From contig CALVLA010000001.1 in assembly GCA_944336125.1 (NCBI GenBank), positions 96,414-160,413 of the forward strand: a DNA stretch of 64,000 bases. Reading direction: 5' to 3'. Position 1 is the first letter of the stretch. Each line of letters begins with the position of its first letter. The translations under genes and the position numbers were made by a program. The notes beneath the pieces were generated by a model. The model was given only the letters and a program-made list of their open reading frames with translations. It searched no databases and was not told the origin of the DNA. This DNA is from an uncultured Clostridia bacterium (GTDB lineage: Bacteria > Bacillota > Clostridia > Christensenellales > CAG-314). This document shows positions 37,255 to 48,372 of the stretch, in pieces.

Positions 37255-39495
37255 TTATTCATTGTACTGAGAAATTTCTGCAATGTTCAAGCTTTTTGAT
37301 TTTGAACTGTAAACGTTATTGTATCCCTTAAATTTCAAAGTGTTGTTTTCCGAAATTTCCAATTTCGCACCGACAACGTTGGAACTACTACACAAACCGA
37401 TAGTTTTATTTTCCGTCAAAATATAGACACCGGAATTCACAGATTCGCTGTTTGAAAAATATTGTGTGCAATCCTGTCCTTCAAACACATTCGAACCATC
37501 CGGACAATAGCAATAACACCCGTCGCAACTTGTAGGAGGTACGGTTCGTGTTTCTGAAGAATAATAATTGCCCGAAGAAACTTTGATTTTTGTCGGTTTG
37601 TCTTTGACCAATCCGTTGACGGTTTTTACCACATCGGTTGTACCGTTTCCGGACAAAGTCAATGAAGAAGCTACAACCTGCCACTTGTCTGACACAACGT
37701 AAGCAGATATATTCAATTCATTACCGGCCAATACCGTAACAGAGCGAATGCCGTCGTAAGCTTTACCGTTGACAACAAAATAGTCAAAAGTATAACCTGC
37801 ATCTACAGAAGGTATTATTTTAATCACATAATTCGGGAAAATCGGTGTTGTTTCTATTGAAATAGGTTCATACTCGGCAGGACATTTATCTCCGGGATTA
37901 ACAAGCATGTTGTTTTCACACCAGCAATAGCACCCTCCGTCGCATTCCGGCTCATATTCTCCGTGAATTTGTTTTTGATAACTTATATGTATACCTTGGT
38001 CAATTTGCAAATTTAGTATTGTGCGAACGACAGCCGTAGTCGTTATGTTTACGTTGCCCGATACCTCACAAGTAACGGTTTTGTCTCCGCTGTATGCCTG
38101 CGAATTTACTTTAAACAAGTCTATCCAATATCCGTGGGCTGCCGAAGCGGTAACTGTCAACACATCCCCTGTCAAAATTTCAGCCCCGTCAGTCAAAGGG
38201 GTGCCATTTTTTGAAACCGTAACAGTTGTATTTGCCCCTTGTGAAACAGAAAGAGTAAATCTGCCCACGCTAGTAGTTGCAAGCGTTAAGTTACCCGAAA
38301 CCTCAATGGTTTTTGTAAATGATTGTTCAGGATTGCCGTTTACCAAAAGACCCGTCACGTCATAATTTGAAAGAGACGGCACGGCTGAAATCGTAAGAGT
38401 TTCGCCGTGAATAATCGTTGCGCCGTTCGATAATGATTGTCCCGACGAATTAGTGACGTTAATTGTTGTGCCTACAGCCGGGTTTAATGTCAAGGTATAA
38501 CCTGATACCGTTGAGATAACCAGCGGCTGTTTAACAGTAATCCCCGTATCAACCCCGCCTTCGGAAGTCATTCCGTTAATTGTCGTTGAAACGATTTTAT
38601 TGTCACTCAAAGCATATGTCCTAATTTGCAGATATCTACCGTGTCTTACGGTATTCGCGCTGTATTTGTTTTCTACATACCTGGTACAATACTGGCTGTT
38701 TTGAATTTCCGTGCCGTCCTCACAATAGCAATAACACGTATCGCACAAATCGCCGTAAATTTCATAGTCAGAATTATAAAGATAAATTTCCGTATTAGGC
38801 GCGGCATTGAGAGTAATAGGATGTTGCACCAAACCGTTTGCCTGAACTACAGCCGTAACGTTTCCCGTGACGGAAGCAACAGAATTCGTTCCGCTTTGGT
38901 TGAGATAAAACGTAGGATCCGCATAATTCTCGTCGGCATTTGCCGATATAGATACACTGTCGCCGTAATAAAGTTTCAAACTGCCCGCCGATGAAGGATT
39001 TGCAATAAGCTGCCCCGTATTCCCGACAAGGCTGAAACTTCTGGAAATCGAGTAAGACACGTGATCCGGAGCGGCAGGATAAGACAATGTGAATTCCTGA
39101 ACTTCCATTTTGACGCCGGTAATTTTTACATCGCTTTGGACGCTTGCCACTGAAAAGGTCTGCCCTTGTTTCTCGTAAGTAATTTCACAAGCAAGCTTAA
39201 ACTGCGTTGACGAGTGTTCCGAAAGCGTGAGATTAAACGTTCCGTCAACTCTCGAACATTTGTTGACGAAAGAAAAATTTTTCGTCATTTTGTTTGTTTG
39301 ATTAGAAATTTCAAAAGTGCCGTTTAAAGGAACGGTTGTACTGACGTCACCGGTACACAAGCCGTTGAGATGTACCGTCAAATTTCCCTCAAGCGTCACT
39401 TTTTTTGTAAAATCGTATTGCGGCTTGTCGAACAGCACATAACTGCCGTTTGACAAAACCGTGTTGCTAAAAGTTGCAATTTGTATATCTGCCAT
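37255..39495 (-). CDS. Leaderless 746-aa beta-rich protein with three CxxCYC(Y/W)C cysteine clusters and InlB-B-repeat-like modules; unknown function
   Basis: The start is at ATG 39495 (MADIQIATF), preceded by AGGAG, and there is no signal peptide. Cys clusters are encoded near 38722-38745, 37921-37944 and 37504-37527. It is a paralog of the 46511-47959 gene. Confidence 0.6.
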   Translation of the reverse strand: MADIQIATFSNTVLSNGSYVLFDKPQYDFTKKVTLEGNLTVHLNGLCTGDVSTTVPLNGTFEISNQTNKMTKNFSFVNKCSRVDGTFNLTLSEHSSTQFKLACEITYEKQGQTFSVASVQSDVKITGVKMEVQEFTLSYPAAPDHVSYSISRSFSLVGNTGQLIANPSSAGSLKLYYGDSVSISANADENYADPTFYLNQSGTNSVASVTGNVTAVVQANGLVQHPITLNAAPNTEIYLYNSDYEIYGDLCDTCYCYCEDGTEIQNSQYCTRYVENKYSANTVRHGRYLQIRTYALSDNKIVSTTINGMTSEGGVDTGITVKQPLVISTVSGYTLTLNPAVGTTINVTNSSGQSLSNGATIIHGETLTISAVPSLSNYDVTGLLVNGNPEQSFTKTIEVSGNLTLATTSVGRFTLSVSQGANTTVTVSKNGTPLTDGAEILTGDVLTVTASAAHGYWIDLFKVNSQAYSGDKTVTCEVSGNVNITTTAVVRTILNLQIDQGIHISYQKQIHGEYEPECDGGCYCWCENNMLVNPGDKCPAEYEPISIETTPIFPNYVIKIIPSVDAGYTFDYFVVNGKAYDGIRSVTVLAGNELNISAYVVSDKWQVVASSLTLSGNGTTDVVKTVNGLVKDKPTKIKVSSGNYYSSETRTVPPTSCDGCYCYCPDGSNVFEGQDCTQYFSNSESVNSGVYILTENKTIGLCSSSNVVGAKLEISENNTLKFKGYNNVYSSKSKSLNIAEISQYNE

Positions 39496-39575
39496 AAAAT
39501 CTCCTGTAACTAACAAAAAATCAACCACCTAAAAGATGATTGATTTTAGTTAAAATAAAATTTTTAGTAATTTTT

Positions 39576-39988: not shown

Positions 39989-40039
39989 GATTTTTTAAAA
40001 TTTAACATCACTTGTCATCAAGCCAATTTTTGTTACCTG

Positions 40040-40438
40040 TCAAGTGAAAATTTTTGTTACCAATCCCACAACAACAATGGCTATTATAATGCCAACTAAA
40101 AATACAGCTGTCATCACCCATCTACCGTATAAAACCATGGACCAAGAAATATCGTTTTCAATATTTATATTTTTCTTTTTTAAAATCTCAAACAAGCATT
40201 TTCGTAAAATTTGCGTGGCTATTACAACGCCTGTTATAAAGACAACACCAAAACAAAATTCGCCGATTTTTCCTTCGATAAGCCACATAAGCAAAAATGT
40301 CGAAACTGACAAACAAAGCTCAAAAAAAATGTAAAGGAATAAATGTTCATACATTAAATAAAACTGATAATCATAAAACATTTCTTTGTCATACGGCATT
40401 CTGACGTTTTTAACTAATTTTTTTAACAACCTTTTCAT
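40040..40438 (-). CDS. Small polytopic membrane protein, candidate cognate immunity protein for the RHS C-terminal domain
   Basis: 132 aa with 3-4 hydrophobic helices and a GAGGA RBS. It lies 61 nt downstream of the RHS stop, the classical toxin-immunity position. Confidence 0.5.
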   Translation of the reverse strand: MKRLLKKLVKNVRMPYDKEMFYDYQFYLMYEHLFLYIFFELCLSVSTFLLMWLIEGKIGEFCFGVVFITGVVIATQILRKCLFEILKKKNINIENDISWSMVLYGRWVMTAVFLVGIIIAIVVVGLVTKIFT

Positions 40439-40499: not shown

Positions 40500-43400
40500 T
40501 TATGCCAAGTCTTCCAATAAGTCTTCAAGAACCAATGATATGATTATGATTAATATTACCGTAATTATCGCTCCGGGCAATCCGCCAACAATAGAACCCA
40601 GTTTTATTATTAAGAAAGATATACCTTCTGACAAGAAAAATACTTTGGCGTTTTTTTCCAAACTATACAAGAAGTCGCCTGTTTCCGCAACATCACTAAA
40701 AAATGAAATGAAAAAATTAGTAAGAGATAATGCTATTGTAAATGATTTGTATTCTATTTTTTTTAAAATTTCAACAAAATCGAAGGATGCATTTGTAAAA
40801 TCTAATATGTTGCCGATAACCGCGGCTCCGACAAACAAAGCCTGCCCCACACTGATTTGAGTGTTGTTGAACAGATAGTCTGTTGGCGAAATAACGGCTT
40901 TTGCTTCCTTAACGTTGAGAGGTCTGTTGGCACAGTAAGCAAAGAGATTCAGCCCGTCTTTTTCAAACGACAAATTCGACATGTCTCTCATAGCCAAGTA
41001 TCTGCCTGTTTCAGGGTTATAATATTCTTTACCGGTGTAATACAAGCCACTTTCCGCATCATAATAATAACCTTTGTAACCGATGCGGAACAATGTTGAA
41101 GACGAAATATTTGTTCCTTCCAATGTTTTAGGGTAATGAGGTTTTCCGTATGCGTCATAATTTATCGCAAGAACACGTCCGCTGTCTCCGTAAATTCCGA
41201 CTACACTTCCGAAGATATCTCTGTCAAAACTGAAAACAACAAAATTATTTCCGTCTTTCATGAAAGTATCATCATCCTCAAAGTCAGGACGATAAAGTTT
41301 GACAGCGCAAACTCCAATTTCATCATATATGTAATGAATCATATATAACTCTTGCACTGTATCCTGTCTTACATTATAACATCTTTCTGCAATGAGCTTG
41401 TCACCGTCATAATAGTAGCATCGGTTTTCACTTACATTATTTGAAATAACATTTCCGTTTGTGCGTATGACAGTTGATGTTTCCCTGAACGTCCTTTTAC
41501 CGTACAAATCGTAATCAAATTTATAAGTGTCTGTCGTTTCAGTTGTATTGATGCCATGAATAATCTCCGTATTGGAAAATTGTTTTAAAAGACCTCTTTC
41601 CCAGCTAACATTTTTTCCGTTAATTTTTGAAGGACAACCCTCATTATAACTGACGTTATCGTCTATTATTGTACTTCCAAATGTATGTTTTTTCAATAGG
41701 TACGGGTTATTTTGATGATACTCAAATGAATTGTTTCCCGAATTTGTACCTGTTACGTTTTTTGCTGTAATATTTCCGTACGAATCATAATTATATGTTA
41801 TCGACTGACCTGTCAAGCCGTTGCTTTCAGTCTTTAATCTACCGTTTTCATATGTGTACGAAATTAATTCGACACCGTTTGAGGAAACTTTAGTTATGTT
41901 TCCCGCCGTATCGTATTCATACTCTCTAACAACTTCTATTCCTTGCCCCACATCGTTAAAAGGTGTGTGATTAGTGATTTCCTTACTTACGAGATTTGTT
42001 TCGACTCCGTTTTTGATTAGGTATTGATATGTTTTTTGCAAACTGCTTCTGTTTGAAAATATACCGACCGGAGAAGAGCAGTATGTTTTTTTCAATCGGT
42101 TAATATCATCTACCTCACGCTGCAAAACAATGTTATTTGCTTCCATATTAGAATTAGACACATCACCGTTGTGGTTAGGCGAAACATAAGTCACGTTTAC
42201 GGTTTTGCCGTCACGGTCAAATTGATTTTTAAAATACATTATTCCTGCCGCTTCGTTGTTTATCGCATAACCCCTGTATGCCTTTCCGTCTTTTACAAAA
42301 GATTTTTTCTTCCATACCAACTTTCCGGTACAGTTAAACACTTCTTCTTTAAACTCGTCGGTAGAATACGTTTTTTTCGTACCTGCCAAATCATCGATAA
42401 TCTTGCTGATTTGTGGTTTCGATGTTCCGTTTACGTAACTGATAGAAGCCGACTTGTCTCCTACCGAAACAGCAGTCATCCTACCGTACTTGTCAAAAGT
42501 AGTTGTCTGTGAAGAATTACCGAATGTTTTTGTAATTGTTTTTCCGCTACCGGAATTTATGACGCTGCTTGCAAAAATTTGCTCATCGTTAATTTTTACA
42601 CTAGTTAAATCACCAAGAGCAGAATAACCGAATTCATACTCGGCATTACCTTGAGATATGCTTTCTATATTACCTTTATTGTAGGTTAAAGCAGTATCAT
42701 TCACATTAACAATTTTTTCCTTGAAATTGTCGTAAATATATGTAATATTTCCTGTCGGTGAAAAAACTTTGTTCACAATGTTATGCGGCATTAAATACTC
42801 ATAACGCGTAATAAAACCGTTTGCGTCTGTTTCGAAATTTTTATGACCTGTCTGAACGTCATACGATGATGACATCACAAGACTTTTATCACTTGCAGAA
42901 GCATTATATTTGCTTACTTTTGTTTCAGTAAGATTACCGAAAGAATCATAAGTATATTCGGTAACAACATTATTTTCCAAAACATATTTGACTGTTCCGT
43001 CATAATTTGTTCGTACAATTTTGCCGTAACTACCGTAAGTTTTATTTGACAAAAGATCTTTAACCGATGTAACAGACTCAATATAATTGGGCAAGAATGT
43101 TTCCTCAACATCTATACATGCTCTAAACTGATTTCCTGCACCTTTATCTTGAGACGAGTCGTCAATCAATTTAGTTCTGTAAATTAATGATACAATTTTA
43201 TCTTGACCTTGCTCTGCAGGCTGTATCATATTTAAATTTATAAAGTTTGAGTTAACCGTATCAATTTTAAAAGAGCATTTGCTTGCAGCAACATTGCAAA
43301 TTCTTTTTTTACCGTTGCAATAAATTATATCGAATGAATTTCTGCTTTTTGCCGCATTTCCAAGAGTTTTCCTCAAATCATTAGTGGTAAATTCATTTGC

Positions 43401-44939
43401 GCCGAAAGCAGTAAGTATTCCATCAATACTTATGCCACTGATTGCTTTTACGCTATATTCGGTATCTTGTACTTCGGTTCCTGTTTTTTCTTTAACAATA
43501 AGTATTTCTGAATTAGCCAAACTTGAAGTTGCGCTTTCTTGAGAATACAATTCTTCATTGCTATTATCTGTAATATTAAATATACTTTCAATTTCACCGT
43601 CATTTTTGAAGTTATATTTCTTTTTTGCACCCAACTCGTCAGTAACAACGGTATTGTCATTGTTGTAAGCAAAAGAAGTGAACATGACGGCATCGGCAAG
43701 ACGAGCAACCTTGATTACACGGCCCAATTCATCATAAGTCATGTTTAATTCTTTGTAGTCGTCGCCGAAAATTTTAGTAAGTCTGCCGTTTAAGTATCCG
43801 AACTGCGCCTGAATACTTTCAACGGTGCTTCCGTCCACTTGCGCTTCTTTGTGAATTTTTGTCAGACGACCGTCGATGTAAGTAAACTTCAACACTTCGT
43901 CCGCGCTATGCTCGCTTCCCGTGTAAGAAATGCTTGAAAGCAAGTCGTTTTGGTATGAAAACGTCGCTTTGTAATTTCCGTTTTGAATGTAAGCTATGCG
44001 TGTGTTCGCCAAAGAATCGCCGATGTCCGAAGCGTTAACGTTGGACGAGTTATTCAAACCGCTTGCCTCATATCCGATGAAAAGGTCATTGCCCAAAGCT
44101 GAATTTATGCAACAAAGTTTGCCTTGCGGCGAAAAATGCATTTCGTTTCCGTTGACGTCGGAAAGTTTTTTGCAACTTGCAACTGTTCCCAAAAACAAGC
44201 CCAGGCCGCTCGTATCGTAAATTTTTCCGTTGCTTATATCAAAAAAGTGCGCTTTGCCGCTTGCGTCCACGTAAGAAGCATTTTGATTGTTTCCCGCAAG
44301 ATATTGATGAAAATTGGTTTTCCACCCTTTGCCTGCCTGTGTGTGAATATCCGAAAAAATCTCATCGCTGTCATAGCTTGCGCCTTTGTAAATGTGCATA
44401 AGGTTAAAAGCCGTAGCCCCGCCGCCAAACGACCAGTCGTTTCTTGAAAAATTCAAGCTGCCGTCTCGAAGGTTTACGCTTGCCGTACCTATCGAGCCGA
44501 TGTCAAAGGTTTGATAAGCGTCGGTATTTAATTCACGGTTTACGAAATCGCATTCCCTATCAGCGGTAAGTTTTACGGTAAATGACGCAGAAGCGGAAAA
44601 AGACGCCGCCGTTTTTGGAATGATTTTTACAAAAATCGTCCCTCCGCCGTTCATTTTACTTTTAGTCAAATCCAGCAAGTTTGCGGTAAAAGTGTTTTCT
44701 CCTGCCGAAAAAGTTTTTTCAAACAAAAAATGGCAAGTTTCGCAAGGCGGAGTCACCTCCGCCTCAGGCAACGCGAAAATATTTGCGGAAAACGAAGCCG
44801 ATGCGTTTACGGCAATATTTAAATTCGCTTCCGTAATTGAGTTTTCCGAAGCAGACGGATTGACCTTGTTAAAATCCGGAACAGTAATTTCAAATATTCC
44901 GTTTGCCGCAGTAAAATTTTTAATATATGTACTCTGCAT
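40500..44939 (-). CDS. RHS/YD-repeat protein (1479 aa) with no signal peptide and a hydrophobic 136-aa C-terminal domain
   Basis: Many YD repeats (YTYDSFGNLTE, YEYDTAGNITK, YNYDSYGNITA, FDYDLYGKRT, INYDAYGKP). The RHS core end is YYDAESGLYYTGKEYYNPETGRYL...DGLNLFAYCANRPLN. The start has an AAGGAGGG RBS. Confidence 0.85.
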   Translation of the reverse strand: MQSTYIKNFTAANGIFEITVPDFNKVNPSASENSITEANLNIAVNASASFSANIFALPEAEVTPPCETCHFLFEKTFSAGENTFTANLLDLTKSKMNGGGTIFVKIIPKTAASFSASASFTVKLTADRECDFVNRELNTDAYQTFDIGSIGTASVNLRDGSLNFSRNDWSFGGGATAFNLMHIYKGASYDSDEIFSDIHTQAGKGWKTNFHQYLAGNNQNASYVDASGKAHFFDISNGKIYDTSGLGLFLGTVASCKKLSDVNGNEMHFSPQGKLCCINSALGNDLFIGYEASGLNNSSNVNASDIGDSLANTRIAYIQNGNYKATFSYQNDLLSSISYTGSEHSADEVLKFTYIDGRLTKIHKEAQVDGSTVESIQAQFGYLNGRLTKIFGDDYKELNMTYDELGRVIKVARLADAVMFTSFAYNNDNTVVTDELGAKKKYNFKNDGEIESIFNITDNSNEELYSQESATSSLANSEILIVKEKTGTEVQDTEYSVKAISGISIDGILTAFGANEFTTNDLRKTLGNAAKSRNSFDIIYCNGKKRICNVAASKCSFKIDTVNSNFINLNMIQPAEQGQDKIVSLIYRTKLIDDSSQDKGAGNQFRACIDVEETFLPNYIESVTSVKDLLSNKTYGSYGKIVRTNYDGTVKYVLENNVVTEYTYDSFGNLTETKVSKYNASASDKSLVMSSSYDVQTGHKNFETDANGFITRYEYLMPHNIVNKVFSPTGNITYIYDNFKEKIVNVNDTALTYNKGNIESISQGNAEYEFGYSALGDLTSVKINDEQIFASSVINSGSGKTITKTFGNSSQTTTFDKYGRMTAVSVGDKSASISYVNGTSKPQISKIIDDLAGTKKTYSTDEFKEEVFNCTGKLVWKKKSFVKDGKAYRGYAINNEAAGIMYFKNQFDRDGKTVNVTYVSPNHNGDVSNSNMEANNIVLQREVDDINRLKKTYCSSPVGIFSNRSSLQKTYQYLIKNGVETNLVSKEITNHTPFNDVGQGIEVVREYEYDTAGNITKVSSNGVELISYTYENGRLKTESNGLTGQSITYNYDSYGNITAKNVTGTNSGNNSFEYHQNNPYLLKKHTFGSTIIDDNVSYNEGCPSKINGKNVSWERGLLKQFSNTEIIHGINTTETTDTYKFDYDLYGKRTFRETSTVIRTNGNVISNNVSENRCYYYDGDKLIAERCYNVRQDTVQELYMIHYIYDEIGVCAVKLYRPDFEDDDTFMKDGNNFVVFSFDRDIFGSVVGIYGDSGRVLAINYDAYGKPHYPKTLEGTNISSSTLFRIGYKGYYYDAESGLYYTGKEYYNPETGRYLAMRDMSNLSFEKDGLNLFAYCANRPLNVKEAKAVISPTDYLFNNTQISVGQALFVGAAVIGNILDFTNASFDFVEILKKIEYKSFTIALSLTNFFISFFSDVAETGDFLYSLEKNAKVFFLSEGISFLIIKLGSIVGGLPGAIITVILIIIISLVLEDLLEDLA

Positions 44940-46510: not shown

Positions 46511-47959
46511 TTAAAAATATTGTTCGACCTTAGTAATAGTCAATGTTTTTTGAGGCGTATCTCCACCTTTGTAACCGTTGAATGTAAGTTGGTTTGTACT
46601 TATGCTTACAGTCGTATCATGCAAAGACGATGAACTAGACGACATTGAAAGCGAAATGCTTGTACCGGCATTGTTAGAAGTATGCAGACCTTCGTTTATG
46701 TAAATGTAATCTCTCCTCCACTCTCCGCACAAACTTCCGTAATCCACCTGACCGCCGTCGGCACAGTAGCAATAGCAGCCGCCGTCGCACCACTCTGGCT
46801 CCGTCGAGCCGGGCGCATAGTAGCGCGTGCTGTAGGATCCGCTTGAAACAGTGATACGCGTTTTTCTTCCTGCAACTATACCCGGCACGGATTTTGTTAT
46901 ATTATCCGTTGTTCCGCTAAACGTATAGGTATTTGAATTTACCGTTCTCCATGCGACAGATTGCAGTTTTGTCTCAATAGTCATTTTTCCGTTCACTATT
47001 GTATTACTGTTTGCCATAACACTGAAAAATGTACTTTGAAATGTTTTGTTTCCCACCTTAACGTAATCCAAAAATTTCCCGTTCGGAATGCTTGTTTGGA
47101 TATAAATCACATCGCCGTAAGTAATATAATCAAGGTTGTAATCACCGTAAATTGTAGGACAATCTTCTCCCCATGGTACCGAGGAGCCGTCCTGACAATA
47201 GCAATAGCATCCTCCGTCACAGTCAAATGACGGATGAGGCGGATACAAAAATTTTTTCAAACTTATCGTAGTCCCAGTATAAGGTTGCAAAACTATTGGA
47301 TAATGAATTTTGCCAGACGTATTGAAAACTAACGAAACGTTTCCGGATATGTTGGTTTTAGATGTAACTCCGGCCGTATCAAAGCCGAAAGACGGTGCGT
47401 AGTACCCGTTCTCGGCAGATGCAGATACCGTTAGGGAATCGCCGTTGTAAACATGCACGGATCCGCTATAATTAGGACTGTTTATCAACACTCCTGTTTC
47501 CGCAACTTCACTTGCCGTTCTTGTCACCGTGTAAGTGTAGCCTTCAGGACAAGCCGGATAACTAAGTACATAACCCGGAATTTCCTGATAAATTTTCGTA
47601 ACGGAAATCTGCCCCGACACATCCCACGCCATAAATGACTGACCTTGAAAAGTGTAATCCACCGTGCAATAAAGAGCCCCGTTAGAAACTGTCAGGCTCA
47701 ATGTCGCATCAATCGACGAGCACTTATTTGTGAGCTTGGCCGAAAAATTTTTACTGTTTTGTCCGGCCGGAATTTCGTAAACACCTGCAGTAAAAATATC
47801 CCCTGTCACGTTTTCGCCGCAGCTTCCCGATATACTACCCGACCAATTTCCCGATATATTTACGGAAATAGGATAGTTGGAATAGATTTCGTCAAGAGCA
47901 AACGAAACCTGCGTACCTTTACTTAAAACTTTGTTTTCGGAATTTAATATTTGTTCCAT
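46511..47959 (-). CDS. Leaderless 482-aa beta-rich protein with two CDGGCYCYC clusters; paralog of 37255-39495
   Basis: The start is at ATG 47959 (MEQILNSE), preceded by GGAGG. The shared N-terminal ~240 aa includes LSYPA(A/C)P and GDS(L/V)(T/S)(V/I)SA(S/N)A(E/D)(N/E)(G/N)Y(Y/A)(A/D)P. Cys clusters are encoded near 47198-47221 and 46766-46789. Confidence 0.6.
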   Translation of the reverse strand: MEQILNSENKVLSKGTQVSFALDEIYSNYPISVNISGNWSGSISGSCGENVTGDIFTAGVYEIPAGQNSKNFSAKLTNKCSSIDATLSLTVSNGALYCTVDYTFQGQSFMAWDVSGQISVTKIYQEIPGYVLSYPACPEGYTYTVTRTASEVAETGVLINSPNYSGSVHVYNGDSLTVSASAENGYYAPSFGFDTAGVTSKTNISGNVSLVFNTSGKIHYPIVLQPYTGTTISLKKFLYPPHPSFDCDGGCYCYCQDGSSVPWGEDCPTIYGDYNLDYITYGDVIYIQTSIPNGKFLDYVKVGNKTFQSTFFSVMANSNTIVNGKMTIETKLQSVAWRTVNSNTYTFSGTTDNITKSVPGIVAGRKTRITVSSGSYSTRYYAPGSTEPEWCDGGCYCYCADGGQVDYGSLCGEWRRDYIYINEGLHTSNNAGTSISLSMSSSSSSLHDTTVSISTNQLTFNGYKGGDTPQKTLTITKVEQYF

Positions 47960-47970
47960 AAAACCTCCAG

Positions 47971-48372
47971 TCATAAAATTCGATTGATAACGACATTTCC
48001 GATTTTTTCCGTACACGTTTTTGACTTTGTGTTTTCCTCTCCGACAAATGTTTTTACGTTTACGTTTTTAGTAAAATCCACCAAATCATCGATTTTTTCA
48101 TCCAGCATGCCAAAATCAAAGGAAATACCGTTATCCAAAGCGTATTTTCTCATAAGAGTCATTACGTATTCTTTTTTCTCCTGTCCGCTGAAATTTACAA
48201 ATTGTTCCGCTTGTTTGATAAGCGGCAAAATTTCATCGCAGATTTGAACGATGTTTTCCGCCGTTGTTTTTGCTTTTTCACTTTTCAAAAACTTTGCGAT
48301 AAATGTGATAACCGCAATTATCAGGCTAATTACAGTGCCTGCCAACGAAATGATAATTTCCGCATTTTCCAC
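47971..48372 (-). CDS. Holin-like small membrane protein (resembles the LL-H phage holin family)
   Basis: 133 aa with a GTG start preceded by AGGAGG. It has a single N-terminal TM (IIISLAGTVISLIIAVITFIAKFL), then a helical domain with AEQ...GQEKKEYV...D..ID pattern as in Holin_LLH proteins. This is recognised from memory only. Confidence 0.4.
   Translation of the reverse strand: MENAEIIISLAGTVISLIIAVITFIAKFLKSEKAKTTAENIVQICDEILPLIKQAEQFVNFSGQEKKEYVMTLMRKYALDNGISFDFGMLDEKIDDLVDFTKNVNVKTFVGEENTKSKTCTEKIGNVVINRIL

Follow-up and report, generated by a model that had tools for sequence, protein, structure and literature searches.

RHS gene and anatomy of its C-terminal tail

The window analysed here is a 64,000-nt stretch of DNA from an uncultured Clostridia bacterium (assembly GCA_944336125.1, contig CALVLA010000001.1, positions 96,414–160,413 of the forward strand), a gut bacterium placed by its GTDB lineage in CAG-314, Christensenellales. 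The minus strand of the window carries a gene for a 1479-residue RHS/YD-repeat protein, the C-terminal tail of which is the subject of this report, followed by two genes for small proteins with three hydrophobic segments each (Table 1). Coordinates are those of the window unless a locus of a relative is named.

Table 1. Features of the RHS locus in the window
Feature	Position	Strand	Remarks
RHS/YD-repeat protein	40500..44939	minus	1479 aa, stop-free translation, no signal peptide
RHS-associated core end, residues 1261–1344	40908..41159	minus	TIGR03696 profile positions 1–71 of 76
First DPxG position	40959..40970	minus	S1324-F-E-K1327 where relatives read DPET/DPST (YLDPET/YLDPST)
Cleavage-site DPxG position	40896..40907	minus	E1345-A-K-A1348 where relatives read DPSG/DPTG
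Polar variable linker K1344–A1367, 24 aa, KEAKAVISPTDYLFNNTQISVGQA	40839..40910	minus	found only with the degenerate junction
Putative toxin core L1368–A1479, ~112 aa	40503..40838	minus	delimited by the recombination boundary at LLVGAAVIGN and family alignments
Glycine zipper G1448-SIV-G1452-G1453-LP-G1456	40572..40598	minus	shows the highest conservation in the family
Strongly hydrophobic C-terminal helix, residues 1453–1471	40527..40583	minus	sole transmembrane-grade segment of the RHS protein
132-aa protein with three hydrophobic segments, candidate for cognate immunity	40040..40438	minus	follows the RHS gene; orthologues behind the tail elsewhere
Second small protein with three transmembrane segments, 113 aa	39647..39988	minus	paralogue of the 132-aa protein, weak (E 5e-5)

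The protein has the repeats and the core that characterize the shell of RHS/YD-repeat polymorphic toxins, all above curated cut-offs. It matches PF05593 (46.9 bits, cut-off 22), TIGR01643 (40.7 bits, cut-off 15.8) and the core model TIGR03696, the latter with 44.4 bits (cut-off 32.5) in an NCBIfam scan and 51.1 bits in a second run. Searches of the PDB with phmmer align it with the Rhs core of Salmonella bongori, YenC2, TccC2/3, the Tse5 shell and Tse15; every alignment stops at about residue 1340, near ...ANRPL, and none enters the tail. The core ends ...GLNLFAYCANRPLNV. The core-end motif DGLNLFAYCANRPLNV spans residues 1328–1343 (40911–40958), and the tail, KEAKAVISPT...EDLLEDLA, comprises the 136 residues 1344–1479 (40503–40910). 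Translation of 40500–44939 confirmed all strings and coordinates quoted in an earlier, sequence-only reading of the locus.

That reading had described the tail as a hydrophobic, glycine-zipper-like module rather than an enzyme. No enzyme-like match was found for it: Pfam reports 0 families at E ≤ 1 for residues 1344–1479, the NCBIfam scan of the whole protein returned core and repeat models only, with none on the tail, and sequence and profile searches of the PDB with the tail retrieved only RHS shells or noise, with no Tse5 chain at E ≤ 10. A match to the transmembrane helix of MtrG in the PDB profile search (E 0.016) was discarded as a hydrophobic-helix artefact. The glycine zipper holds for G1448-x3-G1452(G1453)-x3-G1456 but not for the first stretch cited, VGQALFVGAAVIGN, which contains no strict GxxxG. 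The prediction of transmembrane and amphipathic helices that the same reading had proposed yielded one segment of transmembrane grade, whereas the three earlier tail helices are moderately hydrophobic or amphipathic and remain below this grade. Across the whole RHS protein, 19-residue Kyte-Doolittle averages of at least 1.6 are confined to segments centred on residues 1442–1470, with a peak of 2.79 at residues 1453–1471 and none before residue ~1440. The tail contains no arginine and has a net charge of –7.

About 25 sequences make up the family of the tail, each attached to an RHS core end, and all come from Heteroclostridium-like gut bacteria. Homologues surfaced only with an exhaustive HMMER search and with a short-query word-indexed search. 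The former, using the 136-residue tail against 1.84 billion representatives, gave seven hits, six of which are real, all six being C-terminal pieces of RHS proteins; the latter, using the tail plus the core end against 5.8 billion sequences, gave 22 clusters. When the word-indexed search was confined to residues 1330–1479 of the full-length protein, it returned only the protein itself. The family includes a 99%-identical copy (P0009) and a 48%-identical tail from the same genus, in a metagenome-assembled genome of Candidatus Heteroclostridium caecigallinarum from chicken caecum. As judged by these conserved homologues in other assemblies, the tail is not a chance open reading frame (ORF).

Family alignments start with the junction N-R-P-L-N-V-x-[DE]-[AVI]-K and a variable S/T/N-rich linker of ~20 residues. 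The putative toxin core downstream consists of a conserved first helix (Q-x-L-L-x-G-A-x-x-I-G-x-x-L-D...D-F-x-x-x-L-K), a variable middle, and a conserved end in which the zipper and the hydrophobic helix are followed by acidic residues (I-G-G-L-P-G-A-I-(F/I)-x-x-I...E-D-L). Within the zipper, which reads G-x3-G-x3-G in the window and has four glycines in the sister species, G1452, G1453 and G1456 (G109, G110 and G113 in tail numbering) are invariant across 23 sequences, and conservation reaches at least 90% for tail residues G105, L111, P112, A114 and I115. AlphaFold2 models obtained from alignments of 5 sequences (pLDDT 41.7) and 23 sequences (pLDDT 54.0, pTM 0.30) are of low confidence, only the four-helix secondary structure being reproducible: both runs place long helices at tail residues 21–51, 54–77, 80–108 and 110–135, with a break at GGLPG. 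A sortase reading of this motif was rejected, as LPGAI does not fit LPxTG.

The N-terminus of the RHS protein, MQSTYIKNFTAANG..., is polar. A Sec signal peptide combined with a wall or membrane anchor, as in WapA-like display, was sought in the protein and not found. At the RHS start (44939), as at the N-termini of the full-length RHS proteins of L016–L021, there is neither a Sec signal peptide nor an LXG-like start.

Junction between shell and tail

The C-terminal aspartyl protease of Rhs proteins is defined by the motif DPXGX18DPXG; in Tse5, either D1141A or D1164A abolishes cleavage, and D1141A also abolishes function in competition (PMC10684867). The window protein lacks the DPxG-x18/19-DPxG(L) motif. 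In an ungapped comparison with 21 core ends of relatives from the same family and order, canonical core ends read YYDPETGRFINADDVSYLDPETIHGLNLYAYCLNNPVMYVDPSGH, and in the same register the window reads YYNPETGRYLAMRDMSNLSFEK-DGLNLFAYCANRPLNVKEAKAV. The sequence-only reading had noted that no canonical DPxGL was visible and had suggested aligning the core end with TIGR03696. Both observations agree: the register gives SFEK and EAKA at the two motif positions, and the TIGR03696 match ends at position 71 of 76, so that the profile end modelling DPxGL is unmatched and no cleavage motif could be located.

In order to place this junction, 151 genomes of the order were scanned with TIGR03696, which gave 95 core matches in 42 genomes. 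Most of these (86/95) reach profile position 75–76, and the nine that stop short are mostly short or stop-containing fragments. Typical members of the order score 70–92 bits, compared with 51 bits for the window protein. D-x-x-G is present at the second site in 27 of the 27 other complete modules (30 loci, same order), with the proline sometimes replaced. As the first DPxG motif varies within the order, only the loss of the second can be stated firmly. By these sequence comparisons, the window junction is a true outlier in its order.

Within the tail family, the consensus at the cleavage site is [DE]-[AVI]-K-x, and the linkers of the sister species, like that of the window, are S/T/N-rich and variable. 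The degenerate junction is kept across two species and at least eight tail variants, and a further intact main RHS gene, that of L060, which encodes 1509 residues, has it as well. Conservation across species, together with the intact L060 gene, argues that the junction is not simply the product of decay.

From its sequence, the tail is probably not released by a canonical aspartyl-protease cut. Two explanations of how the junction would work can be set against each other. The motif-less junction, and the additional flexible linker found only in the motif-less form, suggest that the cargo may act uncleaved, tethered through N-R-P-L-N-V-x-[DE]-[AVI]-K and the S/T/N-rich linker in a teneurin-like topology for antibacterial attack, in which it would emerge from the shell and enter the target membrane without being detached; we put this forward as a tentative proposal, and would not rely on it. 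It is equally possible, and equally doubtful, that the same toxin is autoproteolytic after all, with E1345 (D in variants) and a nearby aspartate, D1328 or D1319, cutting within or after [DE]-[AVI]-K. All family members hold an acidic residue at the position of the catalytic aspartate, followed by a near-invariant lysine. Moreover, P0007, P0025, P0027 and the main RHS of L060 keep aspartates at both motif positions, having lost only the proline and the glycine, and members without the first DP have a conserved D-G before LNLFAY. Such conservation of a junction suggests function. In the window, however, S and E occupy the two motif positions, D1319 and D1328 lie 26 and 17 residues from E1345 whereas the spacing in relatives is 20–23, and D-x-x-G is retained in all other complete modules read from the order. 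A single Asp-to-Ala change is enough to stop cleavage in Tse5 (PMC10684867).

Two further RHS modules without D-x-x-G at the cleavage site were observed in the same bacterial family as the window. One is an orphan in L019 (G001:C67, 8593–9513), which reads NNPIRATTGIKAVDAK..., and the other, in L022 (G017:C13, 3121–4095), reads NNPISNFYNNSSKKVASALSS... and is followed by an S/N-rich stretch. Both carry tails unrelated to that of the window.

Orphan cassettes, tail exchange and candidate immunity genes

Loci L026 and L023/L024 belong to conspecific strains and share operon and flanks with the window. Their main RHS gene is a different one from that of the window: the encoded proteins are near-identical to the window protein at the N-terminus, but overall identity is only ~47%. 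In addition, their junctions are canonical (LDPST-x18-DPSGH and LDPET-x18-DPTGH), and they bear other glycine-rich hydrophobic tails, each with its own downstream gene. When 40500–44939 is compared with L026:2904–7463 and L023:900–5360, near-identity is seen in the flanks and the RHS N-terminus, and the whole shell, and not the tail alone, appears to have been replaced by recombination among conspecific strains.

Orphan copies of the window-type tail are present in these strains. The copy in L026 lies beyond the main RHS gene and the immunity gene that belongs to it. This copy, with 90% identity to the tail in the window, retains a core remnant (PETGRYLAMRDMS...NRPLNVKEAK), its frame opening ...PETGRYLAMRDMSNLSFEKDGLNLFAYCANRPLNVKEAKS..., and is followed in turn by orthologues of the 132-aa protein (79.5%) and of the 113-aa protein. 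In L023/L024, the orphan reads SRYYDPETGRFISPDAIEYLDPSTIGGLNLYSYCNSNPVMYVDPSGH-FVIS-LLVGAAVIGNILDF...: here the putative toxin core stands straight behind a canonical YVDPSGH junction (DPST-x18-DPSGH), and the 24-residue linker is missing. This copy fixes the functional core at about L1368–A1479 and marks it as exchangeable cargo.

Similar arrangements occur in other relatives. For instance, L028 combines a window-type junction with a 43%-identical tail variant, in which GGIWGILIG replaces GGLPGAIIT, and the variant is followed by a 138-aa protein that shares 42% identity with the 132-aa one (E 6e-23). In the sister species (L013/L014), there are two tail types, a and b, and behind each comes a separate 113–116-aa protein with three transmembrane segments; they form arrays of main and orphan genes in which the pairing of tail and partner is kept across assemblies. 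The intact main RHS of L060 (...LDPTVFGGLNLFAYCHNRPLNVCDVK...) bears a longer tail variant and is followed by a 106-aa membrane protein and several orphan cassettes. Orphan arrays were found in L013/L014, L023/L024, L026, L028 and L060/L061. Tails and downstream proteins diverge together, as evidenced by paired identities of 90%/79.5%, 43%/42% and ~35%/~30%, and differences between the window and L026 tails are concentrated in the middle helices. A variable tail, an adjacent small gene of putative immunity function and orphan cassettes are the features by which polymorphic toxin-immunity systems are recognized, and the locus presents all three.

These data bear on the surface-anchor alternative offered in the sequence-only reading, according to which the tail would be a C-terminal membrane anchor fixing the shell to the membrane of the producer, with the small membrane proteins as partners. 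A very hydrophobic single helix at the extreme C-terminus with a short acidic end, the missing cleavage motif and the lack of a signal peptide, as in tail-anchored proteins, would all fit such a role. Nevertheless, the module is exchanged between strains, stored as orphan cassettes together with partner genes and placed also behind a canonical junction, which argues for cargo and not for a structural anchor; in conspecific strains, unrelated tails are found on RHS proteins that share this N-terminus and operon; and the helix is preceded by ~85 further conserved residues, including invariant Asp, Gly and Lys positions. Furthermore, a tail anchor in a protein with no signal peptide and no other hydrophobic stretch would leave the shell in the cytoplasm, not at the surface. 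We consider an anchor very improbable.

A GAGGA ribosome-binding site, 61 nt past the stop codon of the RHS gene, precedes the 132-aa ORF, orthologues of which lie directly 3' of this tail type in L026 and in L023/L024. The 113-aa gene accompanies it in the window, L026 and L024; the 113-aa proteins of the window and of the conspecific L026 are 100% identical (99.7% at the nucleotide level). Pfam searches with either ORF gave nothing at E ≤ 1. The 113-aa protein also has a homologue (E 8e-14) in the product of the gene immediately behind the sister-species tail, and it may be either an orphan immunity gene product, since its closest relatives follow sister-species tails, or a second immunity subunit, by analogy with the ExiCD pair. 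Polytopic ExiCD protects against extracellular EsxX and occurs as orphan immunity genes (PMC12744356; 10.1101/2022.09.07.506920). Unlike the 132-aa ORF with its GAGGA, the 113-aa ORF has no Shine-Dalgarno-like sequence before its ATG (39989–40039), and its translation may be weak or coupled. In L023:8437–8778 and L024:3463–3804, the orthologue of the 132-aa protein is only 113 residues long, with an altered C-terminus (...NDFFGPGFYTVDCQRMLAF) and without the third hydrophobic segment, which is probably the result of a frameshift.

Some other features of these loci deserve mention. In L005, L007, L009, L015–L018, L023 and L026, many canonical RHS tails open with long glycine-zipper hydrophobic stretches right after DPxG and have membrane proteins encoded downstream, so that cargo which acts on or crosses membranes seems to be usual in this group of gut Clostridia. 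A 501-aa protein encoded upstream (46511–48016, minus) and a 757-aa repeat protein encoded downstream (37255–39528, minus) are paralogues (34%, E 1e-42). Among 61 relatives, homologues of both are confined to this genus, where they flank the RHS locus in L012, L023, L026 and L060. The 501-aa protein was rejected as a conserved RHS partner, being a genus-only paralogue of the 757-aa protein. The first gene of the co-directional block (47971–48372, minus) shows a weak match to Holin_LLH (PF09682, E 2e-6), and may be connected with the way in which the RHS protein, which has no leader, is released. Mobile elements lie beside RHS islands in two relatives: inovirus-like genes (REP_ORF2-G2P, Zot) at L061:10789–16873, and a phage-type integrase at L023:13441–14850.

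Proposed mode of action and relation to known systems

In our view, the tail most likely serves as the toxic cargo of a polymorphic RHS protein; it would be a small glycine-zipper domain, helical throughout, that damages membranes, and we assign to this reading a probability of roughly 0.65. A membrane-inserting toxin paired with membrane-embedded immunity was also the interpretation preferred in the sequence-only reading, and comparative genomics (cassettes, co-divergence and the copy behind a canonical junction) supports it. The target would be a competing Gram-positive cell, into whose cytoplasmic membrane the tail would insert by means of the zipper and the hydrophobic helix, assisted by the amphipathic helices, and the resulting pore or ion channel would dissipate the membrane potential. 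Before delivery, the RHS shell would enclose the hydrophobic tail, keeping it soluble and off the membrane of the producer; such enclosure is suggested by Tse5 and by the need for cytoplasmic sequestration of EsxX. The 132-aa protein would neutralize the toxin within the bilayer and shield siblings, with its 113-aa paralogue possibly in an auxiliary role. The variable middle helices, in which the residues that differ between window and L026 are concentrated, may determine specificity.

Several observations weigh against this interpretation. The export route is not evident: the protein lacks a signal peptide, and the genome, 94.6% complete, yielded no WXG100 gene. Structural support is also lacking, since a Foldseek search of the PDB with the AlphaFold2 tail model gave a single meaningless hit (E 6.7). 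An uncleavable pore-forming RHS protein would run against the only tested precedent, because Tse5 needs cleavage. The remaining points concern the state of the genes: sister-species main genes with this junction are disrupted at the 5' end, the main gene of L061 is split, the tail has been displaced in conspecific strains by RHS genes with canonical junctions, which could mean loss, and dN/dS is ~1, albeit from few changes, when the window copy is compared with the orphan of L026.

These last points on the genes would also fit a decaying or disarmed system, in which loss of the protease motif blocks delivery, the gene is transient, and the membrane proteins are kept as immunity against kin. 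The low TIGR03696 score and the restriction of the tail to orphan copies in conspecific strains also fit this explanation. On the other hand, the 1479 codons of the window ORF are unbroken and a 99%-identical copy, P0009, exists elsewhere, the junction is conserved across species and variants and has been carried onto another shell type, and the intact 1509-aa main gene of L060 has the same type of junction and its own immunity gene. Decay is thus unlikely, although not as improbable as an anchor. Specifically, the sister-species RHS genes with this tail family are 5'-truncated or frame-broken at L012:5747–8272 and L014:6125–8543 (frames of 841 and 691 aa), and the main RHS of L061 (1963–6514) is split into 1158 + 371 aa; all three may be pseudogenes or assembly errors.

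If the tail is a membrane toxin, its occurrence behind either a canonical or a motif-less junction in gut Clostridia amounts to a natural test of the need for cleavage, the motif-less form being conserved across species and in intact genes. In addition, the weaponry of gut Firmicutes with small genomes, of which little is known, would gain an unannotated toxin-immunity family. If the toxin proves to be ordinary and cleaved, it would simply be another member of the Tse5/TelE functional class.

The window protein resembles canonical RHS, TcC and teneurin-like shells in its YD-repeat shell and in a TIGR03696 core above cut-off, and differs from canonical RHS shells in lacking the defining DPxG-x18-DPxG. 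RHS shells are thought to need aspartyl-protease cleavage for cargo release, whereas metazoan teneurins are shells that keep their C-terminal domain uncleaved; to our knowledge, antibacterial RHS proteins of bacteria without the protease motif are unusual. Pore-forming colicins such as E1 and A offer a second comparison. Their helical domain sends a hydrophobic hairpin into the inner membrane, immunity proteins with 3–4 transmembrane segments act in the bilayer, and toxin-immunity pairs are polymorphic. In contrast, the tail has no Pfam match at E ≤ 1, its core measures ~112 aa versus ~200 aa, and the delivery scaffold is another.

TelE and EsxX, membrane-depolarizing LXG toxins of Bacillota delivered by the type VIIb secretion system, likewise have a small C-terminal toxin domain in which a glycine zipper is key (10.1101/2022.09.07.506920; PMC12744356), and G1448-x3-G1452-x3-G1456 conforms to the (G/A/S)xxxGxxxG pattern of this functional class. 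Unlike the RHS shell here, however, they depend on LXG-type delivery and on soluble cytoplasmic partners. The Pfam and PDB searches of the tail, to which the comparison was limited, gave no sequence relation to either protein.

The closest parallel is Tse5 of Pseudomonas aeruginosa (PA2684), the C-terminal tail of which is a pore-forming Rhs tail countered by the integral membrane immunity protein Tsi5 (PMC9637101). The two systems share an RHS shell with a hydrophobic cargo, which the shell shields in Tse5 and would shield in the window protein, a small (~16 kDa), non-enzymatic, hydrophobic helical tail, which in Tse5 inserts into and depolarizes membranes, and an adjacent integral membrane immunity protein, which in the window is a candidate (PMC9637101, PMC10684867). 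The view in the sequence-only reading that RHS tails are usually enzymes needs qualification in this light, as a pore-forming RHS tail with membrane immunity is already a known kind. Tse5, however, is a Gram-negative protein that depends on the type VI secretion system and VgrG, has an intact DPXGX19DPXG and needs cleavage, whereas the window protein is encoded by a Clostridia host, has no recognized delivery domain, reads E-A-K-A followed by a linker at its junction, and has a tail for which no sequence similarity to that of Tse5 was found. What is new here is an unannotated, lineage-restricted family of putative toxins and immunity proteins on a conserved junction without the protease motif.

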